Shown here one piece after another: positions 14,861 to 58,465 of a stretch of DNA of 64,000 nt. The position numbers and the translations under genes were made by a program. The notes below the pieces were generated by a model. The model had not been told where the DNA came from, did no database searches, and saw only the letters and a program-made list of their open reading frames with translations. Positions within the stretch are counted from its first letter, which is position 1, and every line of letters starts with the position of its first letter. This DNA is from Rhodobacter sp. (GTDB lineage Bacteria > Pseudomonadota > Alphaproteobacteria > Rhodobacterales > Rhodobacteraceae): contig JASJDP010000006.1 of the NCBI GenBank assembly GCA_030065095.1, positions 16,777 through 80,776 of the forward strand. Reading direction: 5' to 3'.

Positions 14861-14911
14861 TTTCAGTGGTGAGCCGTGCAGGATTCGAACCTGCGACCCA
14901 CTGATTAAAAG
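14861..14911. repeat. attL-type direct repeat (51 bp, identical to 58415..58465); contains the 3'-terminal 45 nt of tRNA-Lys
   Basis: Base-by-base comparison: TTTCAGTGGTGAGCCGTGCAGGATTCGAACCTGCGACCCACTGATTAAAAG is present at both sites and the flanks diverge immediately. Confidence 0.92.
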
Positions 14912-15033
14912 ACTGAAATCCAACTATCTCAGCACTTCTCATAGGCGAATAATATTTGTATAAAAACAACATGATATCCGCAGAACGCTGAATATACCGG
15001 AACATAGAATACCCCTTAAACGCGAGAGATTTG

Positions 15034-15053
15034 TGAGCCTAAGATGAGCCTAA
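15034..15053. promoter_or_regulatory. tandem TGAGCCTAA 9-mers (11-bp register), candidate integrase arm-type sites overlapping the int start codon
   Basis: TGAGCCTAAgaTGAGCCTAA is read here. TGAGCCTAAaaTGAGCCTAA is read at 58365..58384, at the other island end. Confidence 0.5.
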
Positions 15054-16156
15054 CCGACGCACAGATAAAACGTCTGCGGGTCCCGGAAAAGGGGCAGAAG
15101 ACCTACTTTGACGACGGACTGTCCGGCTTTGGCGTCCGCGTTTCTCAAGGCGGTACCAAGACTTTCATTGCGTTGTGCGGACCTAAACGGAAACGGCATT
15201 CCATCGGGCGCTATCCCAACATGTCGCTGGCCGAAGCACGGGCGAGGGCCAAGAAAATCCAAGCCGAATTTGCCTTGGACAGCCCGATTGAGATTGCCCG
15301 ACCCTCGCTGGGGTTTGACGATGCGCGGCGGATGTTTTTGGCCGACAGCGAAAAGCGGAACCGGCCCCGGACGTTTGATGAATACCATCGCCTGCTGCAT
15401 CGGCACTTTGCGTTCAAGGGCAACTTGGATGAGATCGACAGGCATCAACTGGTGCGGGCGTTGGACAAACTAAAGTCCACCCCGTCCGAACAAAAGCATG
15501 CCTTTGTGGCCATCCGCACCATGATGAACTGGTGCTGCAAGCGCGGACACATTGACGTGTCGCCGGTGCCGCCGCTGACTTTCAAGACCACACCGCGCGA
15601 CCGGGTGCTGACCGCCGACGAATTGCGCACGGTGTGGCTGCGGGCCGAGGACTACGGCTATCCCTTCGGAGCAATTGTGCGACTGCTGATTTTGACCGGC
15701 CAGCGCCGTAGTGAAATCACCAACCTGCGTCGCAGTTGGCTGGAAGCAGACGCCATTACCTTCCCGACCGAGATCATCAAAAACGCGCGCGAACACACCA
15801 TCCCCATGGGCGATATGACCCGCACCCTGATCGCCGATCTACCCGAGCGCACCGACCTGCTGTTTCCGTCCCGCCTGAATGACGAAACGCCTTTCAACGG
15901 TTTCTCCCGCTCTAAACGCACCTTCGACCGGGAAATCGAGATCGAACCCTACACGCTGCACGACCTACGCCGCACCTTCAGCAGCCTCATGGCCAAGCTG
16001 GGCACGCCCATCCACGTGACCGAAAAAATTCTCAACCACACTTCCGGCACCATTAGCGGTGTGGCCGCTGTCTACAACCGCCACTCGTACCAAGACGAGA
16101 TGCGTGAGGCGTTGGCCGCCTATGAGGGCTATCTGCAAGATCTGATGAAGGCCTGA
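15044..16156 (+). CDS. int: tyrosine integrase, P4-like (DUF4102 N-domain plus phage-integrase catalytic domain)
   Basis: 370 aa with catalytic signature elements (TGQRRSE, HDLRRTFSS, LNHTSG...AAVYNRH). Located 133 bp from attL. Confidence 0.9.
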   Translation: MSLTDAQIKRLRVPEKGQKTYFDDGLSGFGVRVSQGGTKTFIALCGPKRKRHSIGRYPNMSLAEARARAKKIQAEFALDSPIEIARPSLGFDDARRMFLADSEKRNRPRTFDEYHRLLHRHFAFKGNLDEIDRHQLVRALDKLKSTPSEQKHAFVAIRTMMNWCCKRGHIDVSPVPPLTFKTTPRDRVLTADELRTVWLRAEDYGYPFGAIVRLLILTGQRRSEITNLRRSWLEADAITFPTEIIKNAREHTIPMGDMTRTLIADLPERTDLLFPSRLNDETPFNGFSRSKRTFDREIEIEPYTLHDLRRTFSSLMAKLGTPIHVTEKILNHTSGTISGVAAVYNRHSYQDEMREALAAYEGYLQDLMKA

Positions 16157-16219
16157 ACCGGACCTGGGCCAACGGCGTCAAGATTTGCGCGTTCCAGCCT
16201 GATTCACTATATTGACCCT

Positions 16220-16489
16220 ATGAACCAAACACTCTCTGCCCGACTGGCCGAAGCCCAATCCCTCTCGGACGCCGATCAAACCAGGCTGGCCGAGTTCATT
16301 GGTGATTTCATCGATAATGCCAAGAGCGCAGACCAATTTGAGCGCGACATGGCCGACCCGAGTTACCGGGCGTATGTCGAAGGTGCGCTCGATGAGGGCG
16401 AGACGGACAGACAAGCCGGGCGGGTGAAACCCATCGACGAGGCCTTGGACCCGGTGGTTGCTAAGTTCAAAGCCCAGCATGGTCTATAA
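16220..16489 (+). CDS. putative type II antitoxin (ParD-like)
   Basis: 89-aa acidic protein whose stop overlaps the start of the ParE-like gene (ATGGTCTATAA). Confidence 0.55.
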   Translation: MNQTLSARLAEAQSLSDADQTRLAEFIGDFIDNAKSADQFERDMADPSYRAYVEGALDEGETDRQAGRVKPIDEALDPVVAKFKAQHGL

Positions 16490-16778
16490 GGTTCTGATCA
16501 CGGCACGCGCCGAGGCAGACTTCCAACGCTTACTTTTCGAGAACGCCGACCGCTACACGCCGCGCGAGCGCTTGGATTACGTAGAAGCCATCCGCACCAA
16601 ATGCCGAGGTCTGGATTGGTTTCCCAAGCGATCCACGCCAGTGACCATCAAGGGGCTCATGTATTGGCGGCTGACCTTCAAAGCGCACACGGTGTTCTAC
16701 CGGGTGTTCGACGACGAGCGAGTGGTCGAGATCGAGGCAGTGTTGCACTCGGCGATGGACCACACGCGCCGAATTTGA
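16479..16778 (+). CDS. parE: ParE/RelE-family toxin
   Basis: 99 aa from the ATG at 16479. MVYKVLITARAEADF ... HTVFYRVFDDERVVEIEAVLHSAMD follows the ParE pattern. Confidence 0.7.
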   Translation: MVYKVLITARAEADFQRLLFENADRYTPRERLDYVEAIRTKCRGLDWFPKRSTPVTIKGLMYWRLTFKAHTVFYRVFDDERVVEIEAVLHSAMDHTRRI

Positions 16779-17166: not shown

Positions 17167-17883
17167 ATGGGGAAAAAACCTCGGCGCAACGGCGCGGGTT
17201 GGAACAAGGACAAGGCGCAGGGACAAAAGCGCCACTTCACGTTGGACGAGACGATCAAGCTGGCGACACATCTCCAGCGGACGCGGCAGTGGCACGATCT
17301 GGCACTGCTGACGGTTGGGTTGGACACCATGTTGCGGGCCAGCGATCTGCTCAAGTTGACCGTGGCCGACGTGACCTATTCGACAGGGGCGATCCGCACC
17401 GAATTGCACCTGCAACAACGCAAGACCCGGACCACGGTGCAGCCAACCCTCACGGTATCCACAAAGAAGAAAGTGGCGCGCTGGATCGAGCAATCGGGCA
17501 AAACTCGGCGCGACTATCTGTTTACCCGGTTCAAACCGCCGAGCGCCGCGCCGATCTGCCACAAACATCTGGTCAGCCTGGTGAAGGGCTGGGCGGTCTG
17601 GCTGGGCCATCCGCCCGACGACTACGCCGCCCATTCGTTGCGGCGTTCCAAAGCGATAGCCCTGTATCGGGCCGGAGCCCCGATTGCCGAGTTGTCCGAG
17701 GCGTTGGGTCACAAAACTCAAGCCTCAACCATGCTCTATCTCGGCATCACGCAGGAACGCGTGCGCCGGGTCATGCTCAGTCTGGACATGACCAGCGGTT
17801 TTGCGGGTCACTTGGACTGGGGAGAAAACGCCCAGAAAACTTTGCCAGAACAGCCGCTTTCTGGTATAATTTCAAGATTATAA
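17167..17883 (+). CDS. tyrosine recombinase, short catalytic-domain-type
   Basis: 238 aa. DTMLRASDLL (Arg), HSLRRSKA (His-x-x-Arg), GHKTQASTMLYLG (His, Tyr). Confidence 0.75.
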   Translation: MGKKPRRNGAGWNKDKAQGQKRHFTLDETIKLATHLQRTRQWHDLALLTVGLDTMLRASDLLKLTVADVTYSTGAIRTELHLQQRKTRTTVQPTLTVSTKKKVARWIEQSGKTRRDYLFTRFKPPSAAPICHKHLVSLVKGWAVWLGHPPDDYAAHSLRRSKAIALYRAGAPIAELSEALGHKTQASTMLYLGITQERVRRVMLSLDMTSGFAGHLDWGENAQKTLPEQPLSGIISRL

Positions 17884-17894
17884 CCCTGATCTTG

Positions 17895-18308
17895 ATGACC
17901 AGCTTTTCTTCCGTCACCGCGACCGCTCAGGATAATTCCGGCAAAGATTGCGCTACCCTGCGCGTGGAAAACGGCTGGTCCCGCGCCCAGTATCGTGAGT
18001 GCCGCCGGGTCGAGGTGCAGGCCAACATCGACCGTTTGGACGCTGAGTTTGCCGAGATGCGCGACTGGCTCAGAGCGCGCGGACTGGATGTAAACGACGC
18101 CGGACATATCACGGACCCCGCAGGCCGCACTCTGGCGCAAATTGAGGCGTCAAACGCCGCTTTGGCGGCGAGCAACGCGGATTTGGCGGCGAGCAACGCG
18201 GCGCTGAGTGCAGAGATCAAGAGCTATCGTCTACGTTCAAAGATCGCCGACGAGAAATATGAGCGCATCCTGCGCGAGTTCGAGCAGACTATTCTGCAGG
18301 GCCAATAA
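17895..18308 (+). CDS. hypothetical coiled-coil protein with LAASNA[AD] heptad repeats
   Basis: An in-frame ATG at 17895 lies within the long ORF 17199..18308, 12 nt after the recombinase stop. The upstream part of that ORF overlaps the recombinase out of frame and is rejected. Confidence 0.45.
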   Translation: MTSFSSVTATAQDNSGKDCATLRVENGWSRAQYRECRRVEVQANIDRLDAEFAEMRDWLRARGLDVNDAGHITDPAGRTLAQIEASNAALAASNADLAASNAALSAEIKSYRLRSKIADEKYERILREFEQTILQGQ

Positions 18309-18317
18309 TTCCCCTAA

Positions 18318-19838
18318 ATGCCGGAGCTATATGAAGCGGCAGACGACGTGAACCAAGCCCACGCGGAGCGGGAGCAAGCCTGTGCGGGCGTCCGCGCCGA
18401 ATGCGCCGATCTAGTGCAGTCGGTGGAGGCGGGTCTTTCGCAACCGCCCCGACCAGAATTATCGCCGGATGCAGCGACCTGGGCCATTGAGGCATTCTCT
18501 GGACTTGAACCGCAAAGCGCCATGTTGGCCGCCTGCGCGGCCTTTGAACAGGATGAACGGCAATTCGATCCCAGCTATGAGATTGCCGCCGACGATCCCG
18601 ATCTCATCCGCGTCGACATCGAAGCCTTGATGACCGAGCAAACCTTGACGGCACGCAACCGCGTGACGACCGCGCAAATAACCAGTGGCGTGCCCACCAG
18701 AGTTCCTGCCGAAATCGGTCAAGAAGCGGCGGGACTGACCGACGAAAAGAAACTGACTTCGCAGCACGAAACGTTGCAGCGGCTCAATGATCAGCAGAAA
18801 TCCGTTGCGGTCATCGAGGCCCGCGTGACTGACGGCAAGGAGATCAAGGCCGACGAACTGGAGCAGTTACAGATCGCCTTTAATCAACTCCGGGCTGATG
18901 GTGCAGGTGCAGCCGGCGCTCTGCGCCAGGTCGTCGCTCAAGCGAAAAGCCCGGAAACCAAACAGCACCTCAACGCCATTTTGAGCCGGGTGGCGCTGTT
19001 ACAAATCGCGTTGCCCGACAAGCCTGGCGTGGTGAACCGGCTTTTGAACACCACAGGCCTGAAATTGGCGGCAGCTACGGTGGCTGGGAGCTTTATTGAC
19101 TTCATGGCGGCGGCAGAATCCGACGAAGACTTGTCCGATGCTGATCGAACCGTCCTGCGTAACATCATCCGACGCGAGGAACGCTACGCTCGCGACGGGA
19201 CCGATGTGCAAGACGAACTGCGTCAAACCCTGACGACACCTGACGGCAAGACTGTTCCTGCCCACCCGGAAGACCAGCCCTACCAGTTCCGCGAACAGGT
19301 GCAGGGCTTTGCCCGCGCCGATGGCAGTCAACATCTACGCGCCGTCACTACCCATGGTGAACGCGTCACCCTCGACATTACGGGCTGGCCTGCAGCGGAC
19401 GTGGGTCGGGCTAGCGAACTTCTGCAGCTCTGGGCCATGACGGAAAATGAAGGCCAGACCGGTTATCTGACCGCCTTGACCAAGCTCAATTGGTCTGGCA
19501 CCGCCCAAATCGACCCGATTGCCCTCCTGCAGGCTTCGCAGGTTGTCAGCGCCCTGCTTGGTCATGGCGAGGGGCACGACGGCGACATCTTCGATGGACG
19601 GGAAACTTTGGGTATGATCCGCTGGCAAGCCCAACTGGCAAACCAAACAGGCGCGACATTGCGCGGAATCCGTGATGAAGGCCGAACCCATGACGCCTTG
19701 ATCGGCCTCGGTATCCGAGATGAAAAGGGCAATCTCGATTTGGACGTTCTTCGGGCCTTTGGTGACTTCAGTCGGGATCATTGGATGACCGCGCCTAAAT
19801 TCGACGCTGTGCAGATGCACCTTGCCAAGTTCGGTTGA
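18318..19838 (+). CDS. hypothetical protein (506 aa)
   Basis: Long ORF starting 10 nt after the previous gene. No motif I can assign. Confidence 0.5.
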   Translation: MPELYEAADDVNQAHAEREQACAGVRAECADLVQSVEAGLSQPPRPELSPDAATWAIEAFSGLEPQSAMLAACAAFEQDERQFDPSYEIAADDPDLIRVDIEALMTEQTLTARNRVTTAQITSGVPTRVPAEIGQEAAGLTDEKKLTSQHETLQRLNDQQKSVAVIEARVTDGKEIKADELEQLQIAFNQLRADGAGAAGALRQVVAQAKSPETKQHLNAILSRVALLQIALPDKPGVVNRLLNTTGLKLAAATVAGSFIDFMAAAESDEDLSDADRTVLRNIIRREERYARDGTDVQDELRQTLTTPDGKTVPAHPEDQPYQFREQVQGFARADGSQHLRAVTTHGERVTLDITGWPAADVGRASELLQLWAMTENEGQTGYLTALTKLNWSGTAQIDPIALLQASQVVSALLGHGEGHDGDIFDGRETLGMIRWQAQLANQTGATLRGIRDEGRTHDALIGLGIRDEKGNLDLDVLRAFGDFSRDHWMTAPKFDAVQMHLAKFG

Positions 19839-20250: not shown

Positions 20251-21099
20251 ATGACAGAGAACAACCTCGAATCTCAATACAAAGACTGTTTTGTAACTTT
20301 TTTCGACATTCTCGGCTTCTCTGAGCTGCTTAGGTCAAGAAGTCCGACACACATCGCAGAAATTCTTTCAGTTTTTAGAGCACTATCGATCAATGGAGAA
20401 GAACCTACGGCAATTGCCAATGCAAGCTTTCAGCCTCCTGCAAACGGCACTAGAATCGAAATTGTATCAGATGCGATTGTTCGGGTCCGGCCAAATAGAA
20501 TCGATCCGCTGACAAAAATGTCTGAGCTCTTCGACGAAATGATAGTCTTGAAGGAGATCCAGATTGGCTGCTTGCAAAAAGGCATTTTAGTCAGAGGGGC
20601 GACGACACTTGGGTCAATGTACATCGATGATGACCCCTCTGGGCCGATTTTTGGGCCTGCGCTTGCCGAAGCGTATCAGATCGAAAGTCGTGAAGTGATT
20701 TACCCGCGTATCGCCATTCACGGTGACGTTGTGGCTCGATTCAAACACGAAAAGAATCCGCTGCTCGCTGAATCATATCAGGTCGATGTAGAGATGCTCA
20801 AACTCCTACTGGCACGCGATGGCGCCGGCCTTTATTTCATCGATTATCTCCGTGTAAATTTTGAAGATCAGAACTGGAGCGCTGCCGAAACTTTTGATTT
20901 CTTGCGAAAGCACCGGAGTCTAATCCGTGATGGATTGAGAAACCATCATGGCAGTATAAGACGAAAATTCTCGTGGCTGCAAAACTACCACAACACATCG
21001 ATTGATCACGCCATACAACGCGGAATAGGTTCAGAGAGCTACCCGGAAGCAGGCGAGGTCAGCGCGTCAGCCTTGCATGCTCTCAAGATAGACGACTAA
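20251..21099 (+). CDS. class-III nucleotidyl-cyclase/GGDEF-like palm-fold protein (non-canonical)
   Basis: 282 aa in an AT-richer region (about 40% G+C in the 60-nt line at 20281). Ordered motifs FVTFFDILGFSELL, IEIVSDAIVRV, LVRGATTLGSMY and FGPALAEAYQIES mirror FxDIxGFT, GDxxM, RIGIHTG and GxxVNxAxRxE. The Asn/Arg positions look substituted. Confidence 0.45.
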   Translation: MTENNLESQYKDCFVTFFDILGFSELLRSRSPTHIAEILSVFRALSINGEEPTAIANASFQPPANGTRIEIVSDAIVRVRPNRIDPLTKMSELFDEMIVLKEIQIGCLQKGILVRGATTLGSMYIDDDPSGPIFGPALAEAYQIESREVIYPRIAIHGDVVARFKHEKNPLLAESYQVDVEMLKLLLARDGAGLYFIDYLRVNFEDQNWSAAETFDFLRKHRSLIRDGLRNHHGSIRRKFSWLQNYHNTSIDHAIQRGIGSESYPEAGEVSASALHALKIDD

Positions 21100-21787
21100 A
21101 GACGGTTCCGAATAGGTCAGCCTGCAATTCCCCATTGTGAGAAAGACCATAGTAAGAATCTATCTGGCGATGAAACTCTTTTTGCCCGCCGTAACTTGGA
21201 TGCCGAACTGTGCAGTATGCCATATCCACGGATTCGAGTGCTTTGGCCGCATCATTTCCGATCGTCACCACGCGTTCAACTGGTATAAGCGCTAGAACAG
21301 AAGTCAAGAAATCAAGCCCAACGTTGCGCTCTCGTCGGGTATGCATCCGGTTCGATTGAGGCTTATCCGACTCGTGCGGATGAAACGGAAAGACGTTCCA
21401 GAAGAACAGTTTTCGCGAAACTCGGGACCGAGCAAGATGAATCTCCGTGGCCGTACGCTCGCGCATGACCGGACCGACCGTAGCTTTCCTCAGCGTTTCA
21501 ACTTCGATCGATTGCGCATAGCCATCCAGCGAGGCCTCGTCAACGAGCGCGACTCCCGTCCGGCGTCCGCCACGCCATCCCAAATCGCGCCCGATCCAAA
21601 CGTCAACCTCATCTGCCTCAGCGCAGGCAATCAGAACCGCTCGCAGATTCTCGCGACGGACCGTGAAGCTGACTTCCACGTCCACATATTCGCAGTTCAT
21701 TGCCCACGGGTTGAAGACGCGTTCCGTTTCATAAGTCGAGAGTTCGTCGATGAATGCGTCTATTGCCGCTCGTAACCGCCTCACCAT
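21083..21787 (-). CDS. uracil-DNA-glycosylase-superfamily protein
   Basis: 234 aa from the ATG at 21787, which overlaps the upstream stop (ATGGTGA). IGRDLGWRGGRRTGVALVDE resembles UDG motif A. FFWNVFPFHPH...SNRMHTRRE and a C-terminal VRHPSYGG resemble UDG motif B (HPS). Confidence 0.6.
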   Translation of the reverse strand: MVRRLRAAIDAFIDELSTYETERVFNPWAMNCEYVDVEVSFTVRRENLRAVLIACAEADEVDVWIGRDLGWRGGRRTGVALVDEASLDGYAQSIEVETLRKATVGPVMRERTATEIHLARSRVSRKLFFWNVFPFHPHESDKPQSNRMHTRRERNVGLDFLTSVLALIPVERVVTIGNDAAKALESVDMAYCTVRHPSYGGQKEFHRQIDSYYGLSHNGELQADLFGTVFSRLS

Positions 21788-22371
21788 CGTCCAGGTTCGT
21801 TCACGTATCCACGCTCCGGCAGCCCCACTAACCATGCTTCTATCGCAACCAGGTCGTCTTCCGCAAACCTGCATTTGTGCCCCGGCCCTTTTTTTACGAC
21901 GCATCGTAGATGTTCTGGGAGCGGCAGCGCCGATTTGCCGTAGTACGCGAACTCAGCACTGATCAGCACTCTTTCCGTTGTACCAGTATCTCGTTCGCGA
22001 TTGGCAACGCTCAGGCTTCCGTCTTCTTCACTATGAAAGGAGTCCAGCTGCTGGAATGTACCGTCTTTTCCGGTCCGGTAGATGTTGTCGCCGTAGCGGT
22101 GCATCATACTGCCGCGCATGTTCGGCTTCTTGCGGGCAAATCGCGGGTCCGACCAATACTGGTCGAAAAGGATAATCTCCTCGACCTTCATCCAGTAAAC
22201 GAGGCGGCCTGACGCTCCGATTTCCGCCGACCCGGTGCCAACAACAAGGTCACCGACTTCGGCAGGTTTCCGTATCTGGGGTTTGCAATTCGCGAGCGTG
22301 CAATACCCCCAAAAAGGATTCGGCGCAAAACCATGGTCGTGTTGGACCACATAAGAGTAGAGCCGGGTCAC
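21781..22371 (-). CDS. Nmad2-like (nucleotide-modification-associated domain 2) protein
   Basis: 196 aa with a GTG start 3 nt after the upstream stop. The N-terminus LYSYVVQHDHGFAPNPFWGYCTLANCKPQIRK matches my memory of proteins annotated as the Nmad2 family. Needs HMM confirmation. Confidence 0.5.
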   Translation of the reverse strand: MTRLYSYVVQHDHGFAPNPFWGYCTLANCKPQIRKPAEVGDLVVGTGSAEIGASGRLVYWMKVEEIILFDQYWSDPRFARKKPNMRGSMMHRYGDNIYRTGKDGTFQQLDSFHSEEDGSLSVANRERDTGTTERVLISAEFAYYGKSALPLPEHLRCVVKKGPGHKCRFAEDDLVAIEAWLVGLPERGYVNEPGRW

Positions 22372-22374
22372 GAC

Positions 22375-22791
22375 TTAGCACTTGTTCCGCTTTGTTTTGG
22401 GTGCCGGACTGGGTTCTCCACCTGGCTCCTCCCAAACATCTTTCTCGCCCTTTAGCGTGACCGCAAGTTCAGGTGACTCAATATCCACGGTCACCCCATA
22501 CTTGGCCACACCATCGGGTACTCCGGCGACGCCGCCCTCCTTGCCGTGCAACCAAATGCACACGACACGGATGCCTGCGCCCGCAAACGCTTGCATCCTT
22601 TCATTCACGGCGGCTTCGTCTTCGGACGCAACCGGCAGACCGACGACACCAATGTCCGCATTCGGATCGAGGCTCGAGACATCTGAGGGGACGTCAGGCA
22701 CGGGCTCATAGCCCGCCGCTCGAACCGCGGCTTCAATCGCGGCGCGATCGGTAGCGTCAAGGTGTTCATTAAAAACATAGGCATTGGCCAT
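22375..22791 (-). CDS. hypothetical 138-aa alpha/beta protein (Rossmann/TIR-like?), basic C-terminal tail
   Basis: ATG preceded by AAGG, 11 nt after the upstream stop. No confident family. Confidence 0.5.
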   Translation of the reverse strand: MANAYVFNEHLDATDRAAIEAAVRAAGYEPVPDVPSDVSSLDPNADIGVVGLPVASEDEAAVNERMQAFAGAGIRVVCIWLHGKEGGVAGVPDGVAKYGVTVDIESPELAVTLKGEKDVWEEPGGEPSPAPKTKRNKC

Positions 22792-22802
22792 GGATTCGCC
22801 TT

Positions 22803-23456
22803 TCAGTTTCCAGATAGTGCCGTTGCAATCAGCGCGGCAATCGTGGCGCCGATCACTGCACCCGCTACCGCAACCCCTGAGGTTGCGTAGTAGAGTTGAC
22901 GAGCAAGATGATCGATACGCCTATTCAACGAGTTCAACGATGCAGTCTCGGTGGGAATCAAACCCATGAGTTCCGTGTCGATCTCTCGATATCCCGGCTT
23001 TTTTCGTTCGTAGTCTTTTGTCGCCTGATCGAGACGTGCCAACCAGATCAAGAAAGCGGGCTGGTCGCAGCGAACCGTCACCGTTTGAGGGCCAGCATTG
23101 AAAACCGCGAACATCAACTTGCCACTATACCCGGGGTCGACGTGAAACCCGCTCACGTTAACGAGGCCACTATTCTTTAATCCGCTCTTCATATTTATGA
23201 AGCCGAGTAAATCGTGAGGGAGGTTGATGAACTCGCGCGTAGGCAGGAAGGCGAACTGACCCGGCGGAATCACAATTGGCGCACCCTGATGTAGCCTTTG
23301 TGTGAGCCCGGGCTTGCGTGTGTCCCGTCCTTCAGGGCTTACGAACGCCTCGTCACCGACCCGCATCGTATAGGCCGCGCAGTCGACGCGTTCAGGGTCA
23401 AACGGAGTGATCCACGCCGCGCCATGTTCGGCGATTATGTCGCCCGAAAGAAACAT
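22803..23456 (-). CDS. dUTPase/dCTP-deaminase-superfamily protein with C-terminal coiled coil and TM anchor
   Basis: 217 aa. Matches Dcd/Dut blocks: PPGQFAFLPTREFINLPHDLLGFINMKSGL and HVDPGYSGKLMFAVFNAG. The C-terminus is SGVAVAGAVIGATIAALIATAL. The start overlaps the upstream stop (TGATG). Confidence 0.7.
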   Translation of the reverse strand: MFLSGDIIAEHGAAWITPFDPERVDCAAYTMRVGDEAFVSPEGRDTRKPGLTQRLHQGAPIVIPPGQFAFLPTREFINLPHDLLGFINMKSGLKNSGLVNVSGFHVDPGYSGKLMFAVFNAGPQTVTVRCDQPAFLIWLARLDQATKDYERKKPGYREIDTELMGLIPTETASLNSLNRRIDHLARQLYYATSGVAVAGAVIGATIAALIATALSGN

Positions 23457-23941: not shown

Positions 23942-23965
23942 GATCGGTATCCTTCAATCCAAAAT

Positions 23966-24244: not shown

Positions 24245-24479
24245 TATACTCTCCGTAGTGGCTCGAGTCCGGGTTTCCTCCATATATTGTGGCGGACTCC
24301 AAGTATTACAACCTCCGTCAAGGACACCACAAACCCGAGAATTCCGGATCGATAGGTTCGATCGCCCGCGACAGCCGCACATAGTTTGTCCGCTTCGCGC
24401 AATCGGACCGCATACAGACTCCGTGACAAGGGGTGGCGACCCGTTTCGCAATTCCTGTTCCTGCTCATTGCCCACCCGG

Positions 24480-49742: not shown

Positions 49743-49847
49743 TGGTGTGCAAATCTCAGGAAGCCGCACTGCAAGAGTCCGCAAGATTCATTTGCGGACT
49801 CTAGATTTCTCCTTACGCTCAAGCGATGTCATCTAACCCTTTTTATC

Positions 49848-50090
49848 ATGACATACAAAGAACACTTGACCGCCCGCGAGCTGGCAATGGCTCTCTTCCA
49901 AGTCCCCGCGGACATGATAATTGAGATCGCGCGCGACAATGACATCAATGGAACGGGCCCAATCGCACTGGAAGAGGACGGCAGCGTCAGCCTATTGATG
50001 ACCAAATTCCGCGATAGCGGAAAGACCGTCGGCATATTGTGGCCACTATACACCGAAACGACCGAAGACCGCTACGCCGACGAGGATTGA
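49848..50090 (+). CDS. hypothetical protein (80 aa)
   Basis: ORF in a co-oriented gene array. No motif assigned. Confidence 0.35.
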   Translation: MTYKEHLTARELAMALFQVPADMIIEIARDNDINGTGPIALEEDGSVSLLMTKFRDSGKTVGILWPLYTETTEDRYADED

Positions 50091-50182
50091 CCTCATATCG
50101 GCCTGTTTGGTTTCTGCTGTCGTCCGGCTGTACCTTGTGCATTTATCACTACCAGGTTTGTGGATGATTTCTGAGTGATGTC

Positions 50183-51322
50183 TTGGCCTATCTCGCCATC
50201 AAGAAAGTCAACGGGCAGCACTACGCCTATCTGCAGGAAAGCTACCGCGAGGGTGGCAAGGTCCGCACGCGCACGGTCGAGTACCTGGGTGCAATCGCTC
50301 CCGCTGTTGCGGATCAGGTGCGCACAACCCGGCGACAGTTGGGACAAGCGGACAGGGCCGCGCTGGTAGCTTCCGTACGAGCCGCTGCAATGGGCGTCGC
50401 CGAAGGCGGTGACGCGCCCCAACAATCGCCAGAACAGTCACCGCCAAACCCGCGCGCCGCTCATTCCTCACCGGCAACGGCGCTTATCACTACAGAAAAT
50501 GAACTGGTATCTAAGCCAATCCCGCCACAGTTCCTGCAGTGGCCCGACGATCTGCCCGGCTACAGCGTCAGCCCGACAGCACTACAGCGCACCCGAGCCC
50601 GCTTTGCGGATCGTCTGCAGGTCATGGGCTTTGACCCCAGCGCCATGCCCCAGGTGGCCATCCGCTACGGCCACCCGGACGGGCTGCGCCGCAATCGCGA
50701 CGGGTCATTCACGATCACCGCTTCGCGTAAGCCGCAGAACAAGCGTCACCAGCTCAACAAGACCAGGCTCTGGCAGCACATGCGTCAGGCCATGAGCCTG
50801 GCCTATCTGGACGCGCTGGCCGAGGCCCGACCCGATCTGCATCACCAGCTGCAATCCGAATTGGACGAAAGCCACAAGGCGACCAAGCAGCTCTTGGTTC
50901 AGAGCCTCGCCCGAGCTTCGACAACTGTCGAGAGGCTGGGCTTATCACTACAGCTTTCCATCTGGCATTCCGTGCCGCAGAAACTGATCAAGCGGAAGGC
51001 AGCGGAAGAATTTGGCCAAGCCAGTTTCGAAACCCTGAAGGACTGGCGCAGCGAAGCGGCGTTCGTGCTGGCCGAGGGGCACAAGTCGGGCTGGCGGGGC
51101 ATGGCCGAGCGGAACAGCAAGGCCCGCCGCAAGCTCAAGAGCGCCATCACGCGGCAGCGCAATCAGATCGACCGCATGGGCGCGGTCGAACGCTTGGGTG
51201 CGCGGCTGTCGGGCAAACGTCGCCGGATCATTCGGGAGATCATGGCCAAGGAAGACCAATTGCGTGCCATCGACCAATTGGAGCGTCGCCAGCAGGTATT
51301 GCGGCGCCATTTTCCGCTTTGA
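50183..51322 (+). CDS. hypothetical protein with N-terminal KKVNGQHYAYLQESYREGGKVRTRTVEYLG motif
   Basis: 379-aa ORF. From memory, this N-terminal motif is shared with the N-termini of some IS1634-type transposases and mobile-element DNA-binding proteins. No catalytic motif recognised. Confidence 0.45.
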   Translation: MAYLAIKKVNGQHYAYLQESYREGGKVRTRTVEYLGAIAPAVADQVRTTRRQLGQADRAALVASVRAAAMGVAEGGDAPQQSPEQSPPNPRAAHSSPATALITTENELVSKPIPPQFLQWPDDLPGYSVSPTALQRTRARFADRLQVMGFDPSAMPQVAIRYGHPDGLRRNRDGSFTITASRKPQNKRHQLNKTRLWQHMRQAMSLAYLDALAEARPDLHHQLQSELDESHKATKQLLVQSLARASTTVERLGLSLQLSIWHSVPQKLIKRKAAEEFGQASFETLKDWRSEAAFVLAEGHKSGWRGMAERNSKARRKLKSAITRQRNQIDRMGAVERLGARLSGKRRRIIREIMAKEDQLRAIDQLERRQQVLRRHFPL

Positions 51323-51620: not shown

Positions 51621-51685
51621 AAATTCAGGCCTAAACTCAGGAAATAGCACAGTAAAATCAGGTACTTCTATGTTCCACTATGTTC
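51621..51685. repeat. short direct repeats upstream of ATPase B: AAAnTCAGG x3 and CTATGTTC x2
   Basis: AAATTCAGG at 51621-29, AAACTCAGG at 51633-41, AAAATCAGG at 51654-62. CTATGTTC at 51668-75 and 51678-85. Confidence 0.45.
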
Positions 51686-51692: not shown

Positions 51693-53615
51693 ATGCTGAC
51701 GATCTTGGAAAAGGCTCTCCACAAGGTCGACAGCCTCCCCATTAAATCCGATGGCTTGCCATTCAATCCCGCCGACGGCGTGGTAGGCACTTGGCAGTTG
51801 CGAGATGCGCTCATGTTGGCGGTTGAGGCCGTCAGCGATGCCGCCAGGTACACCGGCCAGTTCCTGACTTATGACGAGGTGCAGCGGCTCCTGAATTCCA
51901 AGGAGGTCAAGCCGGCCCCGCCCGATCCGAATGACCCAAGTTTCGACCCGCCGCATATCTCCTACGACAGCCCGGAAGAACGGCTCATTGCCCGGCGCTA
52001 TCGGTACCAACAAGCCCAAAAAACTTATGAACAGACGCTACAGACCTATCAGAGAAATACTGCAGACGCCGATCGGATCAGGCGATCTTTCGGGTATGGT
52101 CTGACGCATTATCTGGGGTACGCCAGAGCTTCGTTGGCTGAGATGGCGGCATCCTCCGGCGGTGAGGCGGTGGCTGACCCGTTGTCTGCGTTCCTCGGCA
52201 AAAAACGGTGCCTGCCCATCCCCGAAGCAGCGGCGGAATACGGCACCTTCATCGTGGGCAATCACGGCTCCGGCAAATCGGAAGTGATCAAACAGCGGGT
52301 CTGGCACTATCTCAACAAACCCCACGCCCGGGAAACCATTGTGGTGATCGATCCGCATGGCGAAATGGCCCCCGAGATCGCCCGCATGAAACCCAACCAC
52401 GGCTCCGACCGGCTGGTCTATATCGACCCGACGCTGGACCCGGAGTTCACCCCTTGCCCGGATGTGCTGAACACTACCGACAAATCGCCCGACAATCTAT
52501 TCCGTGAGGCGGAGTTCTACGGCGCGGCTCTACGCATGATTGCCGGAAACTTGGAACCCAGCGCGACCGGCAACATGGAAAGCCTGTGCCGCAACTGCGC
52601 CCATGTGGTGCTGGAGAATGACCAGTTCAATCTGGCCGACCTGTTGGAGTTGTTGGCGGTGGAGGCTCCGAAAAAGGGCCAGACCGCAGCCGATCCACCA
52701 CCGATTATGGAAGCGGCCCTTGGCCCTTCAGCCAATCCGCGCGTACAGCGGCATTTCCAACAGCAATTCCTCTCCAGCCGCTACGGCATGGCCAAGAGCG
52801 CACTCTATGGCCGGATCGAACGCATTCTGGCCGCGCCGCCGTTGCAGCGGATGCTCTTGAACCCGCCCACCTTCAACGTTGGTCAGCTGATAGAGCAACG
52901 CAAAGTCATTGTGATCAACCTGCCTTTCAAAAACCTGTCCAAGCCGGTCACCGCCATGATCGGCCAGCTGATCATGGCCCAGATCATGCTGGCGGTGCTG
53001 AAGCGCGATTTCCAACGGATCAAGGACTACCCGCCGGTCCATATCTACATCGACGAAGCTCAGCATCTGGTCAGCCACGAGACCGCCGAGCAGATCAACG
53101 AGTTCCGCAAGTTCGGTTTCAACTTGTCACTAGCCACGCAATATGTGGACCAGTTCCCCGCCGACATCCTGGAAGCGGTCAAAGGCTTGGGCGTGCAGAT
53201 AGCCGGGTTCTGCGAGGGCAAAAACCTGACGGCCATGAACGGCATTTTTGATCTGACCAGCAAGACCAAGGACCTTGATGAGACCGTGCTCCTTAAGAAT
53301 CAGCCTGTGGGGCATTTCTTCATCAAGTCACGCGGAGCCGAGGGCGCGCCGCCGATCAAAACCCGGCAGTTCGTCACCGATACCAACCTGATCATCAAAG
53401 GGGCCAGGTGGCGCGCGCAGAACGCCGAAAACTACATGAGCGACGAAGAATGGGAGGAAACCAAGCAAACCCAGCTCAGCTGCTACTACCGGCGTGTGAC
53501 CAGCCTGGAGGACGCGGCTCTGGCCCGTGGCGACGGCGAGGCCAGCAGCCAGCAAGACCGTGCTACCGGCGACAGCCGCAGCCCGCTCACGCCCGACCTG
53601 GGCTACAACGATTGA
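51693..53615 (+). CDS. T4CP/TraD/FtsK-HerA-like P-loop ATPase (module B)
   Basis: 640 aa. Walker A GNHGSGKS and Walker B VHIYIDEAQHLV. Collinear with ATPase A (VVIDPHGEM versus VLLDPHGDL; DRLVYI in both) but only distantly similar. Confidence 0.7.
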   Translation: MLTILEKALHKVDSLPIKSDGLPFNPADGVVGTWQLRDALMLAVEAVSDAARYTGQFLTYDEVQRLLNSKEVKPAPPDPNDPSFDPPHISYDSPEERLIARRYRYQQAQKTYEQTLQTYQRNTADADRIRRSFGYGLTHYLGYARASLAEMAASSGGEAVADPLSAFLGKKRCLPIPEAAAEYGTFIVGNHGSGKSEVIKQRVWHYLNKPHARETIVVIDPHGEMAPEIARMKPNHGSDRLVYIDPTLDPEFTPCPDVLNTTDKSPDNLFREAEFYGAALRMIAGNLEPSATGNMESLCRNCAHVVLENDQFNLADLLELLAVEAPKKGQTAADPPPIMEAALGPSANPRVQRHFQQQFLSSRYGMAKSALYGRIERILAAPPLQRMLLNPPTFNVGQLIEQRKVIVINLPFKNLSKPVTAMIGQLIMAQIMLAVLKRDFQRIKDYPPVHIYIDEAQHLVSHETAEQINEFRKFGFNLSLATQYVDQFPADILEAVKGLGVQIAGFCEGKNLTAMNGIFDLTSKTKDLDETVLLKNQPVGHFFIKSRGAEGAPPIKTRQFVTDTNLIIKGARWRAQNAENYMSDEEWEETKQTQLSCYYRRVTSLEDAALARGDGEASSQQDRATGDSRSPLTPDLGYND

Positions 53616-53619
53616 CCGA

Positions 53620-54552
53620 ATGGCCCATCTCCCTCCCGCTGCAATCAATATTCTCAGAGCCTTGTGCTATTTCCACTATCTGACCAAGCCGCAGATGGTG
53701 GAGTTGGGGCTGGCGAAATCCGTGGGCAGTCTCGACAATCATGCCATGCCCTACCTGGCTCCGAAACGCGACAAGCAGACCGGCAAGGAAATCATTCCCA
53801 AGGGCCAGCGCAAATCGGCCTTCCTCTGCCACAGCCTGACTTACGGCTTACGCGACGAGACCGACAAGCCCGGCAAGAACCACTTCATGTATTACCTGAC
53901 CCAGGCCGGGCTGGACCGCGCCTATTGGGAATTCGAGGCCGGGTTTCAAAACGGCGATGGCGACCTGCAAGCCGACGATCTCTGGATACCGTCCGAGCAC
54001 GAGCAGCTATCCAACGACTATCACCACCGCCGCCACTACGTCTCCGCCCATATTGCCATCCGCAAATGGGCTGCCCGCGTGGGCGCAAAGATCGATTTCT
54101 GGCAGCACTATTACCAAGCCAACCCGAACCGCCCGAAGCTCCACGGACGCCCGCCGTCGCGCAACCGGGTTGCTTGGGACGACACGGGCCGCAAGTTCTG
54201 CACCCCGGACGGATTGCTGGGCATCACGCACCAAGGTCAATCCCGGCTCTATATGTTGGAACTCCATCACCGTACCCCGACTAAACAGGTGGTGGACCAG
54301 CTCTATCGAGATTTCCGCGCGGTGCGGGCGATCAAAGCCAAGTTCCCGGACTATCCGACCGGCAGCGACCCGTACGTGCTGTCGGTGTTCACCAGTTCGA
54401 CGGACAGATCGGCAGCCCAACGCAAGATCCAATCGTCGGGCACCTTCGACGGCGTACGACGTGGCCTCTTGCTGGCACACCCTGAGAATTTAGTGTCCGC
54501 CCCAAACCTGGCATGGGAATATTTCGACGGGACCGAGGCGAGGCCGATCTAA
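53620..54552 (+). CDS. replication-relaxation (Replic_Relax) family protein (module B)
   Basis: 310 aa from the ATG at 53620. AAINILRALCYFHYLTKPQMVELG parallels the module-A protein. Confidence 0.65.
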   Translation: MAHLPPAAINILRALCYFHYLTKPQMVELGLAKSVGSLDNHAMPYLAPKRDKQTGKEIIPKGQRKSAFLCHSLTYGLRDETDKPGKNHFMYYLTQAGLDRAYWEFEAGFQNGDGDLQADDLWIPSEHEQLSNDYHHRRHYVSAHIAIRKWAARVGAKIDFWQHYYQANPNRPKLHGRPPSRNRVAWDDTGRKFCTPDGLLGITHQGQSRLYMLELHHRTPTKQVVDQLYRDFRAVRAIKAKFPDYPTGSDPYVLSVFTSSTDRSAAQRKIQSSGTFDGVRRGLLLAHPENLVSAPNLAWEYFDGTEARPI

Positions 54553-54558: not shown

Positions 54559-54945
54559 CTAGCGCTCAGCAGGCGTACAGATCGTCAACACCCGCGCCGT
54601 CACCGTCGGATCCGACTTGTCTGGCGAATGGTACATGAGGTCGAGATCGTAGTAGTCCACTTTGAAAAGGTAATCCTGACCTTCAACGCGCACAGCGGCG
54701 CAGTCGTGTTCGCCCCACGGATCGTTCTCGCGCGTGAAATCGTCGAATTCCTGGATCGCCCGAAAAACCAGCGCTTTGGTTGCATCTGGCAGGCTCTGAA
54801 CTTCCAGGCTTTCGACGATCACGCCGCCCAAGCCGGTCATCCTCAAAACGTCGTTCAGAGCCCGGACCCGCCGGACTGTTACCGGGTCGGCTTCGTCGGC
54901 GCTTTGTCGGAACCGGTCAGGCGGAACAGGTGAGAGCATCAGCAA
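54559..54945 (-). CDS. DUF3768-like protein
   Basis: NDPWGEHDCAAVRVEGQDYLFKVDYYDLDLMYHSPDKSDPTVTARVLTI matches my memory of DUF3768, which is common on alphaproteobacterial plasmids and ICEs. Confidence 0.65.
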   Translation of the reverse strand: MLMLSPVPPDRFRQSADEADPVTVRRVRALNDVLRMTGLGGVIVESLEVQSLPDATKALVFRAIQEFDDFTRENDPWGEHDCAAVRVEGQDYLFKVDYYDLDLMYHSPDKSDPTVTARVLTICTPAER

Positions 54946-55346: not shown

Positions 55347-55730
55347 CTAATTTTCACCACTAAGTTGCAAACGCAGGAAAATTTGACTTTGTGAAATCAA
55401 CAGAGATGATTGCGCCTCCAGCAAAATAATTCTGTCATCGATCTCACTTAAATTTGATGATAAATCTTCTAGGCCAGATGCAAGTGGCATAAGGTTGGAG
55501 TGAACCACTACGTCCAAGCCTCTAACGGAGGACTCGAGGTTTTTGATATTATCTCCATCCTGACCTAGCACAGATTCACTAAGGCGCTCTTGGACAAGAA
55601 CTCTTTTTTCCAAATCATTCAACTCTTCCTTGATCGCAAAAATGGCAGAAAAGAAGCCTATAACGCCCCCAACAATTGAAGCCATAATAAAGCCAAAGAC
55701 TTTGTCCAAATTTTTTTGCAGCCAAGTCAT
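55347..55730 (-). CDS. N-terminally membrane-anchored coiled-coil protein
   Basis: 127 aa. TM segment FGFIMASIVGGVIGFFSAIFAI followed by heptad-rich sequence. Its ATG overlaps the vWA-TPR stop (ATGA). Confidence 0.55.
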   Translation of the reverse strand: MTWLQKNLDKVFGFIMASIVGGVIGFFSAIFAIKEELNDLEKRVLVQERLSESVLGQDGDNIKNLESSVRGLDVVVHSNLMPLASGLEDLSSNLSEIDDRIILLEAQSSLLISQSQIFLRLQLSGEN

Positions 55731-57577
55731 GGGCCATCTAGCCTATCCGGTTTGACGCCCTCGGAAACCCTCTCAATTTCAATTAAAGTGTCTTCTAGAA
55801 CTGGTAATAACGGATGCTGGTGGGTCAAGCTCGCCTCGCTTGATTTGAGAGCTTCTTTGAGAAGAGCTCGTGCCTCGGTGAATCGACCTTGGGCCGCGAG
55901 GATTACTGCCAAATTTTGCGCAACACTTGCAAAGCTAGCGCTCTCGCGGCGAAATAATTCCGATGATGTATCGACCGAGGCTCTTAAGCTTGTTTCCGCG
56001 CTTGACAATTGGCCGCTCGCCGCTTGTACGGCCGCGAGGTTGGTGCGCGCGGCAAGAGTTTGCGCATGATTGTCACCAAAATACTCGGAGGTTTTGTTCA
56101 GAACCTCTTGAAATGCTGCTTCGGCATCCCTCAAGCGCCCTTCCGAAGCGAGGAAAGCTCCAAGACTGCTTAACCTCACAAAAGATTCGGGATGAGGACT
56201 TCCGTATTGTGCCTCAGCTTGTGCGAGGGACAGGCTTATCATCTGAATCGCGGCCTCAGGCTCTCCCACAGAAAATAGCGAGTGCGCGAAGTTGTTTGAC
56301 ATGGCGACAGTCATTGGATGCTGGTCACCTAGAGCCTGTCGGCTGACGTCAAATACTCTTGAAAACAAAACGTTGGCGTCGTTTTTCCTCCCAATTCTTG
56401 ATAGCAGGGATGCCAGATTGGAACCCGCCGAAACGGCGAACGGATGGCTCTCGCCAAAAAGAGCAGTAGCTTCAAAGTAGACTTGATCGGCCAGTTGTAC
56501 TGCATCTTCGTGGCGCCCGACTTCAAATAATCGTAGGGCATTAATTTTATCACCGGCAATATCTCGAAACGGGTCCGTTGCCGGTAGTGCATCGATATAG
56601 ATTCTTCCACGCAGTCGAGAAAAAATAGATCTGGGATCGAAATTGACGCCTACCCGGTGAGTACCACTTTCCAAACCAAACGCAGTAATAGTTCTTGCGT
56701 AAATCGAACTTCGATCGATTTCAGAAATTCGCCTGGCATTATTGATTTCAACAGAAAGTTCAGTACCGTCGCGGAAATCGGCGGCAATGACCGTTACCAA
56801 AAGCCTTTTCGCCTTTTCCTGGATCATAAACGAGATCTGTTCCGTTGGCTGTCTTATCTCAGAGCTTACGATCTCGGCATCTACACCGACACTCCGATAA
56901 GCTTTGGTCACGGACGTCCGCACGGCTTCGAGAAACTCCAGTTCACCGCTACCTGCTTCGACCGCTCCTCCCGAGATTTCTTGATATTCAGGGCTTGCAA
57001 ACACGCTGACATTACTGCCGAATCCAACGACATGAATGGAGATGCCTTCGTTTGCTGCACGCTCTGTGAGAGCGGTGACATCGATAGTGTCAGTCGGCTC
57101 ACCATCGGTAAAGAGGAATACTCGCTTGTCGCCGAGGGCCGACGACAAATGATCAAATGCAGTAGCAAGAGCGGCTCCCGTCGATGTGCCGCCCTCTCCT
57201 GGTCGGAACAAGTGTGGGCTTATTGCCCTGCGAGCAAGTCTTGAGTCGACAAGGCCATCGCCAGTTAACGAGTGAACTTGGTCCGAGAACTCAACTATGG
57301 CAGCGCTTACGACTGGATCAATAAACTCGGCATAAGATAGGACAATCTCGGCAGACGCAGATAATACTTCGCCATTGGGATCATTTGTTCTCATAGATCC
57401 GGATCGATCAATTAAAATCACAACAGATAAAGGATCTGCATGTACCGACTTCGATGAAACAGCTGCGAGAAATACCAAAATCAGCAGGCAAGCCCGCGTG
57501 AAGCGGACCTTACTCCACCCGTTGCTGATTCCAATTAAAGTGTCACCCACAAATTTTCTGGCCAGCATACTCAACAT
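55727..57577 (-). CDS. secreted or anchored vWA-domain protein with C-terminal TPR array
   Basis: 616 aa with an N-terminal hydrophobic segment. MIDAS motif VVILIDRSGSMRTND and TDGEPTD, and about 250 aa of TPR-like repeats. About 42% G+C in the 60-nt line at 56521. Confidence 0.75.
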   Translation of the reverse strand: MLSMLARKFVGDTLIGISNGWSKVRFTRACLLILVFLAAVSSKSVHADPLSVVILIDRSGSMRTNDPNGEVLSASAEIVLSYAEFIDPVVSAAIVEFSDQVHSLTGDGLVDSRLARRAISPHLFRPGEGGTSTGAALATAFDHLSSALGDKRVFLFTDGEPTDTIDVTALTERAANEGISIHVVGFGSNVSVFASPEYQEISGGAVEAGSGELEFLEAVRTSVTKAYRSVGVDAEIVSSEIRQPTEQISFMIQEKAKRLLVTVIAADFRDGTELSVEINNARRISEIDRSSIYARTITAFGLESGTHRVGVNFDPRSIFSRLRGRIYIDALPATDPFRDIAGDKINALRLFEVGRHEDAVQLADQVYFEATALFGESHPFAVSAGSNLASLLSRIGRKNDANVLFSRVFDVSRQALGDQHPMTVAMSNNFAHSLFSVGEPEAAIQMISLSLAQAEAQYGSPHPESFVRLSSLGAFLASEGRLRDAEAAFQEVLNKTSEYFGDNHAQTLAARTNLAAVQAASGQLSSAETSLRASVDTSSELFRRESASFASVAQNLAVILAAQGRFTEARALLKEALKSSEASLTHQHPLLPVLEDTLIEIERVSEGVKPDRLDGP

Positions 57578-57959
57578 CGCAGGTTGCTACTCAGCACATG
57601 GACCATGACACAGTTCGTTTCAGTCGTTCAACGGAATTGATCAGCCGTTACCAATTTACGCTGACGTTCGTGCCGACAGTGACGTGTTTTCCTTATTAAT
57701 CCTTGTATTCAAACTATGGATTTGTAAGTGCCATTCTGCGCTCTTTTGGCCATCGCCTTCAAACGCCTCCCGTTTAAAACTGGAAGTTAGCCTTCAGAGT
57801 GTTTTGGCAGTTTCCTTATGGCGCGAACAAGAGCACAGACGTTCGCTGCACCGTAACGAATGGGTAGGAAGGGCTCTCAACGGGCTTTCTCTGCACGCTG
57901 TCTGAATGTTCGGTTCGGATGCGACGACCCGGGTTTGCGCAACCGGGCCGCCGCTGCTC

Positions 57960-58160
57960 CTACTCGGAGCTTGTTTGGCTACCGCGCAACTCTATCCGCC
58001 GTTGCAGCCAGTCCAGCACCTCGCTTTCCACCCATCCGACGCGATTGGAGCCGAGCTGTACCCTTTTGGGAAACTCGCCCACTTTCTCCAACCTCGCGAT
58101 GTGTTGCGGCGAGTACAGCACCAGCTCCTTCAGATCGCGTTTCGACAGTATCCTCATCAC
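57960..58160 (-). CDS. alpA: AlpA-family HTH regulator/excisionase-like protein
   Basis: 66 aa. ILSKRDLKELVLYSPQHIARLEKVGEFPKRVQLGSNRVGWVESEVLDWL. Confidence 0.85.
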   Translation of the reverse strand: MMRILSKRDLKELVLYSPQHIARLEKVGEFPKRVQLGSNRVGWVESEVLDWLQRRIELRGSQTSSE

Positions 58161-58364
58161 AATGTCTCCTGTAGATCAGGAGCATCGCGATGCCCCGGTT
58201 GGGATGGACCCGGACCGAGAGATTTCAAGGTACTGGAAGTGCTGGCGAATTTGTAGGGCCAGGAGAGCATTCTATTGGCGAGGCGCTACAAGTCAGTGGG
58301 CAACACGGCGTTGATTGATACGCATAGCTGAACATAACGGCTCATCACAAATTATTGCGAATTC

Positions 58365-58384
58365 TGAGCCTAAAATGAGCCTAA
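58365..58384. promoter_or_regulatory. tandem TGAGCCTAA 9-mers (right-end copy), candidate integrase arm-type sites
   Basis: TGAGCCTAAaaTGAGCCTAA lies 30 bp from the att repeat. See 15034..15053. Confidence 0.5.
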
Positions 58385-58414
58385 GGTTTCAAATACATCC
58401 TGCTAAGTCATTGA

Positions 58415-58465
58415 TTTCAGTGGTGAGCCGTGCAGGATTCGAACCTGCGACCCACTGATTAAAAG
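58415..58465. repeat. attR-type direct repeat (51 bp), overlapping the 3' 45 nt of tRNA-Lys
   Basis: Identical to 14861..14911. Confidence 0.92.

Follow-up and report, generated by a model that had tools for sequence, protein, structure and literature searches.

A 43.55-kb island at the tRNA-Lys(UUU) gene of a Rhodobacter sp. genome, a probable composite integrative mobilizable element

The 64,000-nucleotide stretch of Rhodobacter sp. DNA analyzed here (the window; positions 16777 to 80776 of the 212-kb contig C11, in an assembly of 62 contigs, 5.34 Mb, and 99.6% completeness) contains an island that is delimited by two copies of a 51-bp direct repeat and that is most probably an integrated composite integrative mobilizable element (IME), inserted at the tRNA-Lys(UUU) gene by its own integrase. 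The repeat, TTTCAGTGGTGAGCCGTGCAGGATTCGAACCTGCGACCCACTGATTAAAAG, occurs in exactly two copies in the window (Table 1; zero expected in 100 shuffles), and the start-to-start distance between them is 43,554 bp. A third copy is absent from the window at up to three mismatches, and a fuzzy search with three 25-nt blocks identified no additional one in the whole 5.34 Mb of the assembly. The right copy comprises positions 32 to 76 (45 nt) of an intact tRNA-Lys and 6 nt of its trailer. This is the sole tRNA-Lys gene among the 44 tRNA genes that ARAGORN detected in the whole assembly; therefore, it must stay functional, and any insertion there has to rebuild the tRNA. The left copy is without the 5' half, and ARAGORN called no tRNA there. 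Outside the repeats, the flanking sequences diverge immediately. The junction anatomy of the original prediction (perfect repeats, an island of about 43.55 kb, a right copy forming the 3'-terminal 45 nt of a complete tRNA-Lys, an orphan left copy, and abrupt flank divergence) was thus reproduced in full.

No other part of the genome deviates as strongly in composition as the island. Its G+C content is 56.2%, versus 64.0% for the genome, and is lower than in any of the 653 windows matched to it in size. The tetranucleotide distance between island and genome exceeds the background mean by ~8 standard deviations (SD).

The integrase gene at the left end encodes a protein with both domains of the P4/CP4-57 type (PF00589, E = 8.6e-18; PF13356, 50.4 bits versus a cut-off of 27). 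The arm domain 3jtz of a CP4-like integrase aligns with residues 1 to 82, and HP1 integrase aligns with the catalytic domain. All six catalytic residues (R221, K246, H306, R309, H332, and Y344) are present, and they are among the positions conserved in 97% or more of the sequences in an alignment of 121 (this integrase and 120 homologs). The AlpA-family protein at the right end also scored above its cut-off (PF05930, 42.2 versus 21 bits), shares 73% to 82% amino acid identity with the AlpA genes of related elements, and is a putative, likely excision regulator or directionality factor. Both genes appear to be intact, being full length and having the conserved residues, and the assignments as a P4-type integrase and AlpA stood as predicted; neither gene abuts its repeat as had been stated, however, the gaps being 132 bp for the integrase gene (int) and 254 bp for alpA.

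The 9-mer TGAGCCTAA is present in four copies in the 64 kb (0.18 expected), is confined to the two island ends, and forms a pair with 11-bp spacing at each end, the right pair lying 30 bp from the repeat. The left pair is invariant in every close relative. The right pair recurs at a similar distance beside an intact tRNA-Lys in another genome (G042, locus L048), where the integrase is 74% identical. In elements with integrases of 42% to 55% identity, other 7- to 10-mers take the same place with the same 11-bp phasing (e.g., TGAGGATAA in three copies, GTGTCTAA in two, and GAGGCTA in two). Since the repeat sequence changes while the layout is kept, a role in protein binding is supported. The 9-mers are candidate arm-type sites through which the integrase could also repress itself at the level of translation or transcription. 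A further motif containing GGAACATAG lies upstream of int (14990 to 15009) and recurs, inverted and doubled at 10-bp spacing, at 51666 to 51685, just before the start of the gene for ATPase B (described below). This motif, common to the two upstream regions, could be a shared operator. Relatives have also kept CTGAACATAG in the region upstream of int.

Two gene units in the island interior, here called units A and B, are predicted to process DNA. Each encodes a coupling-protein-like ATPase and a MOBC-like, nuclease-like protein, and unit A also encodes a large serine recombinase (Table 1). ATPases A and B are 33% identical, and the Walker A and B motifs were identified in both; MOBC-like proteins A and B share a PD...E motif. 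In tblastn searches, ATPase B gave distant matches (21% to 28% identity, E values down to 3e-24) to plasmid genes that are annotated as VirD4, as containing a TraM-recognition domain, or as type IV secretion system DNA-transfer genes. The gene order of unit A is also found in locus L065 (55% to 75% amino acid identity), and the same three-gene order adjoins a related recombinase in Pseudooceanicola atlanticus; a coupling protein and a relaxase likewise accompany relatives of the serine recombinase. PF13814 is treated as the MobC relaxase superfamily, and the succession of coupling protein, MobC relaxase, and serine integrase is a described compact IME order (PMC5357655). The same family is in use as a relaxase marker (PMC11104534). 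Unit A has the order and the three protein classes of the streptococcal IME_Class_8 (VirD4 coupling protein, MobC/PF13814 relaxase, and serine integrase; Coluzzi et al. 2017, PMC5357655), although in our case the host is proteobacterial, the PF13814 match is below the cut-off, and the unit is embedded in an island of greater size, which contributes a tyrosine integrase of its own and another ATPase/MOBC-like pair. Near the start of unit A, a perfect hairpin (30378 to 30407) is not conserved in L065, the closest relative, whereas other noncoding blocks such as CCGCTCATAGAGCGGCTTCGCGCCACCC are (window positions 30095 to 30640 versus 5060 to 5600 in L065). As judged by this conservation, such blocks are better candidates for an origin of transfer (oriT) than the hairpin.

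Pfam scans covered 52 island open reading frames (ORFs), PHROGs searches covered 10 backbone proteins, and PADLOC was run on 10 cargo and backbone proteins. No phage structural or secretion-system families were found among the 52 ORFs. No VirB4 family was identified in the island or the genome, the sole weak match to TIGR00929 being ATPase A itself. We therefore rejected an integrative and conjugative element, as neither a VirB4-type ATPase (VirB4 models) nor a type IV secretion gene set (Pfam, 52 ORFs) was found. The island has no complete mating-pore apparatus of its own, as is the case for IMEs. Because there is no mating pore, transfer would depend on a conjugative element resident alongside the island. 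The PHROGs matches were at the level of P loops only, and no capsid, terminase, portal, tail, or replication-hijack family, of the kind that a prophage or satellite would carry, was detected by Pfam or, for the 10 proteins searched, by PHROGs. A prophage was rejected on these grounds.

Unit B is preceded by six backbone genes whose products had no Pfam, PHROGs, or NCBIfam match. Homologs of the 172-, 199-, and 379-amino-acid products occur in the same order in a related element on the ENA contig k141_128200. The 379-amino-acid protein (50183 to 51322) belongs to a rare family of ~40 homolog clusters, nearly all of them metagenomic, and one homolog is annotated as Arm-DNA-bind_3. Its structural model is confident (pLDDT, 80.6), and no PDB fold matched it at an E value below 0.27; the N-terminal sheet of the model resembles integrase arm domains at a nonsignificant level only. 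That so many backbone genes are without an assigned function, and that the ATPases have HerA/FtsK-like P loops and a weak terminase-like match, could be taken to mean that the ATPases move DNA without a classical pore, making the element self-transmissible, or that the island is a phage satellite packaged by a helper phage. The combination of int and alpA is also the core of the phage-inducible islands of gram-negative bacteria. We consider both possibilities very improbable. The five small backbone proteins (80 to 199 amino acids) and the 379-amino-acid protein are without a pore-capable membrane segment, no capsid, portal, tail, primase, or terminase was found by Pfam or among the 10 products scanned with PHROGs, and 43.5 kb is far above the size of known satellites.

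Homologs of the integrase form thousands of protein clusters, many of them in roseobacter genera. Relatives with 73% to 82% integrase identity were identified in Roseovarius sp. A46 (PVWS01000009.1), Roseovarius aestuariivivens, an Aliiroseovarius metagenome-assembled genome (MAG), and a JGI metagenome contig (L038). In each of these four, int lies ~130 bp from an orphan tRNA-Lys 3' fragment, and the outer flank is different; the orphan copies of the relatives have one or two mismatches, versus 51 of 51 identical positions in our island. In the Aliiroseovarius MAG chromosome, the intact tRNA is 45 kb from the orphan fragment, and the island in between has only int and alpA in common with the one studied here. 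The A46 and Aliiroseovarius elements share the integrase subfamily (73% to 76%), the orphan tRNA-Lys fragment, the 9-mers at the int start, and AlpA with our island; in contrast, the cargo is unrelated in each of them, as it is in k141_128200. The position of alpA also varies: in A46 and k141_128200, it directly follows int, and the alpA gene of the Aliiroseovarius island is separated from the tRNA end by ~8.7 kb. The DUF3768 gene of our island is found in the A46 element as well. In A46, the element-end motif TAAGTCCTTGATTTCAG precedes the orphan fragment (L037, 160 to 250), which is why a second element of the family may sit in tandem upstream. JGI metagenome contigs were also scanned with a degenerate pattern for all four junction types. 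This yielded 14 contigs, all of the attR type and next to an intact tRNA-Lys, many of which carry the element-end motif TAAGTCWTTGA beside the tRNA. The motif is missing from relatives whose tRNA has other neighbors. The tRNA-Lys site is therefore often used by this element family, and in Rhodobacteraceae, elements appear to land recurrently at the tRNA-Lys beside dapF.

The whole backbone of the island was found to be colinear in k141_128200, where it covers ~25 kb beside a tRNA-Arg(CCG)-like fragment. The order there is the P4-type integrase (43% to 56% identity in tblastx segments), AlpA (76%), a trio including a short tyrosine recombinase, unit A (55% to 75%; inverted), small genes, a 418-amino-acid homolog of the 379-amino-acid protein, ATPase B (52% to 69%), and MOBC-like protein B (59%). 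The trio is homologous to that of our island (37% to 49% amino acid identity) and is located at the corresponding place, and the 9-mer differs, being TGAGGATAA. The two-module design therefore goes back to a common ancestor of the two elements and did not come about here through chance nesting. The island studied here is an expanded version, carrying two blocks of cargo. Its backbone belongs to a rare family that has not been described. The 4.7-kb unit A (30100 to 34850) is opposite in its orientation relative to the backbone when compared with k141_128200 (L105 and L104), and it may insert or invert on its own. The integrase of k141_128200 (L105, 4830 to 5010) adjoins an apparent 5' half of tRNA-Arg(CCG), an unusual junction where ARAGORN made no call, and no matching repeat for this fragment was found in 36.5 kb.

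The source of the assembly also bears on the junctions. The host genome is of the marine Rhodobacteraceae type, and the assembly appears to be a metagenome bin, because a metagenome scaffold matches part of the window at 100% identity; by record coordinates, that scaffold spans window position 30077 to the window end and ~170 bp more. A bin could have joined an unrelated low-G+C contig to the chromosome via the tRNA-derived 51-mer, as repeats are able to cause misjoins, and the left junction was not found in a second assembly. An artifact of this type is nevertheless extremely improbable, since both junctions lie inside the single contig C11, the right junction (28 kb of the island joined to dapF) recurs independently in scaffold_817, and isolate genomes as well as a 4.1-Mb chromosome-scale MAG contig have the same layout of orphan fragment and integrase.

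The remaining features of the island are mostly cargo (Table 1). The low-G+C cassette of 2.26 kb is bracketed by inverted repeat I6 (20 of 22 positions complementary), which begins at the stop codon of the XerC/D-like recombinase gene. A separate metagenome scaffold terminates at 30077, within the right arm of I6, and these two observations suggest that the cassette is invertible or variably present. In the TpsA gene, five tandem 309-bp repeats (36860 to 38395; 63% to 76% identity to the reference copy) correspond to repeated Ig-like and cadherin-like domains of the protein. PADLOC gave no defense system match for its 10 proteins, which included the trio and six genes of cargo block 1.

Table 1. 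Features of the island and its junctions (positions in the window)
Feature	Position	Strand	Evidence or remark
attL, orphan tRNA-Lys 3' end (45 nt) plus 6-nt trailer	14861-14911	.	Exact 51-mer; no tRNA called
Two TGAGCCTAA 9-mers, 11 bp apart, second over int ATG	15034-15053	+	Candidate arm-type or operator sites
P4/CP4-57-type tyrosine integrase, 370 aa	15044-16156	+	PF13356 and PF00589
Small ORF, putative ParE antitoxin	16220-16489	+	Position upstream of ParE; no Pfam match
ParE toxin	16458-16778	+	PF05016, E = 2.7e-11
Trio: short tyrosine recombinase (238 aa), 142-aa and 506-aa proteins	17167-19838	+	PF00589, E = 6e-20
Cargo block 1	20251-26737	.	Includes a 282-aa protein; Pfam matches
UDG-like, Nmad2, dCTP-deaminase-like operon	21083-24833	-	Pfam
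RES-domain toxin	25197-25943		Pfam
Ros/MucR regulator	26204-26737		Pfam
XerC/D-like tyrosine recombinase, 313 aa	26872-27813	+	PF00589, E = 7.8e-36; PF02899
Low-G+C two-gene cassette in 22-nt inverted repeat	27813-30094	.	Repeat I6
CFA-synthase-like methyltransferase	27839-29065	+	PF02353
342-aa protein of low-G+C cassette	29046-30074	-	Second gene of cassette
Unit A: ATPase A, MOBC-like protein, large serine recombinase	30247-34840	+	Three-gene unit
ATPase A, coupling-protein-like	30613-32037	+	Gene call; TrwB_AAD_bind, 30.1 bits, above cut-off
MOBC-like protein A	32052-32891	+	Replic_Relax (PF13814), below cut-off (see text)
Large serine recombinase	33014-34840	+	Gene call; Resolvase and Recombinase domains
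Cargo block 2	35076-47506	.	Pfam matches; gene calls from L066
Fib_succ_major protein	35076-35828	+	Pfam
TpsA, two-partner secretion	35818-41121	-	Pfam
TpsB, two-partner secretion	41132-42838	-	Pfam
LuxR-type regulator	42849-43145	-	Pfam
Hybrid sensor kinase/receiver/AraC protein, 1321 aa	43541-47506	-	Pfam
Six backbone genes (172, 177, 123, 199, 80, 379 aa)	47706-51322	+	Order of 172-, 199-, and 379-aa products kept in related element
Unit B: ATPase B (640 aa) and MOBC-like protein B	51693-54552	+	DUF87 above cut-off (ATPase B)
MOBC-like protein B, 310 aa	53620-54552	+	Homologous to MOBC-like protein A, E = 2e-10
DUF3768 protein	54559-54945	-	Pfam
127-aa membrane protein	55347-55730	-	One hydrophobic segment
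vWA-TPR protein	55727-57577	-	Pfam
AlpA-family protein, 66 aa	57960-58160	-	PF05930, E = 7.4e-11
Second TGAGCCTAA 9-mer pair, 30 bp from right repeat	58365-58384	+	Candidate arm-type sites
attR, repeat copy forming 3' part of functional tRNA	58415-58465	.	Exact 51-mer; ARAGORN
tRNA-Lys(UUU)	58421-58496	-	ARAGORN; sole tRNA in window

The left flank contains ordinary metabolic genes (an aminotransferase, hexuronate genes, a TRAP transporter, and LacI- and MarR-type regulators), and on the chromosomal side next to attL lies a MarR/DUF4166/epimerase block with orthologs of 60% to 73% in three family genomes. The genes of the right flank encode DapF, a radical-SAM enzyme, and GST. At 60.2% G+C, the left flank (1 to 14860), which has the hexuronate/TRAP/LacI cluster, is ~2.4 SD under the genome mean and may itself be accessory DNA, though without an att remnant bounding it; a fuzzy search of the whole assembly identified no further degenerate att copy left of attL that would point to a tandem island.

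Integration would have started from a circular form whose attP shared ~51 identical bp with the tRNA-Lys(UUU) 3' end and recombined with the chromosomal gene, with the island's own P4/CP4-57-type tyrosine integrase as the probable catalyst. The element-borne copy would then complete the tRNA at attR, and the displaced chromosomal 3' end would be left as the orphan at attL. Strand exchange most likely occurred in the anticodon loop; the identity block starts exactly at tRNA position 32, and tRNA-targeting integrases as a general rule exchange strands in this loop. In the circle, the two TGAGCCTAA pairs would flank the core as likely arm-type sites for the N-terminal domain of the integrase, and the pair over the start codon would be the one through which the integrase represses its own gene. 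AlpA, transcribed divergently from int across attP, would likely act as the excision activator or directionality factor.

Several results weigh against a mobile element integrated in this way. The Replic_Relax score of the unit A protein (23.6 bits) is just under the Pfam cut-off of 25.3, the relaxase link of unit B is through homology to unit A only, and a clear N-terminal membrane anchor was found in neither ATPase. No helper secretion system was identified in the assembly; plasmids may be absent from it, because it appears to be a metagenome bin. The left junction is known from contig C11 alone, exact look-ups in the second assembly having been negative. Neither an attB nor an attP junction was found in the assembly or the JGI metagenome contigs, and no empty site with the same left flank was found in related genomes. 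The last of these is explained by the scrambled synteny of the left flank at the available distances. The left-flank DNA had no meaningful match in 40 relatives, the genes beside tRNA-Lys in two relatives are here on other contigs or without a clear ortholog, and the MarR orthologs (67% to 69%) in three family genomes have no tRNA-Lys within ~9 kb and differ in their neighbors. The comparison with related genomes proposed in the original prediction yielded the same layout of int and orphan fragment with unrelated cargo but not the empty site.

Some of these results would also fit an island that integrated as described but is now immobile, a stretch of chromosome that goes on accreting DNA and has simply preserved its ends. 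The missing helper system and the lack of junctions indicative of excision in the assembly and the JGI metagenomes count in favor of such a fixed island, as do its heavy mosaicism, with four recombinases and several G+C domains, and the decay seen in its cousins (the R. aestuariivivens integrase matches residues 1 to 164 only, and the orphan copies of the relatives have mismatches). We regard a fixed island as unlikely: the orphan copy has retained identity at all 51 positions despite being free of the tRNA constraint, int and alpA are full length with their conserved residues, and the 9-mer pairs are intact at both ends. The view of the island as a discrete element was strengthened by its foreign composition, by the relatives with the same layout and other cargo, and by the candidate arm sites at both ends, and the intact ends suggest that it may still be excisable. 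The original prediction of an island was sound in this respect; it had overlooked the probable composite mobilizable nature of the element and the recurrence of its backbone in one metagenome element.

The probable composite IME resembles several known systems in part. As in the P4/CP4-57-type islands (CP4-57 of Escherichia coli at ssrA and the Yersinia high-pathogenicity island [HPI]), an arm-domain tyrosine integrase is combined with a small AlpA-family protein, and a gene for a small RNA has been entered in its 3' part and is rebuilt by a direct repeat. In CP4-57 and HPI, int lies beside the intact gene, whereas here it lies beside the orphan fragment and alpA beside the intact tRNA. In addition, unlike in those islands, there are no phage genes, and the cargo and mobilization backbone are unrelated. 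The SGI1 and MGI-type islands of Gammaproteobacteria have their own integrase and excision factor, have no mating pore, and need a helper conjugative element. Our island is similar to them in being a chromosomal island without a mating pore and with its own integrase; their integration sites and their relaxase or oriT solutions are different ones, and their helper plasmids have been named.

There is, finally, a slim chance that the island represents an undescribed marine alphaproteobacterial element family whose two DNA-processing modules differ in role, or that moves without a classical secretion system, and whose int is self-regulated via arm sites at the start codon. The backbone of such a family would comprise the P4-type integrase and AlpA, the short tyrosine recombinase trio, the 4.7-kb unit A in either orientation, the rare 379-amino-acid protein without a known fold, and the second ATPase/MOBC-like pair. 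If so, one module could serve, e.g., in transfer and the other in replication or maintenance of the excised circle.

The island is of a standard kind of mobile island, and the basic picture of such elements is unchanged. The island shows how cargo is imported, in this case an adhesin secretion pair, a large sensor-regulator, toxin-antitoxin genes, and an uncharacterized nucleotide-modification operon. In a host group in which such islands have been little studied, two features provide concrete, testable handles on integrase regulation and mobilization: the backbone, which is conserved, and the repeats at the start of int, which change in sequence and keep their 11-bp phasing.

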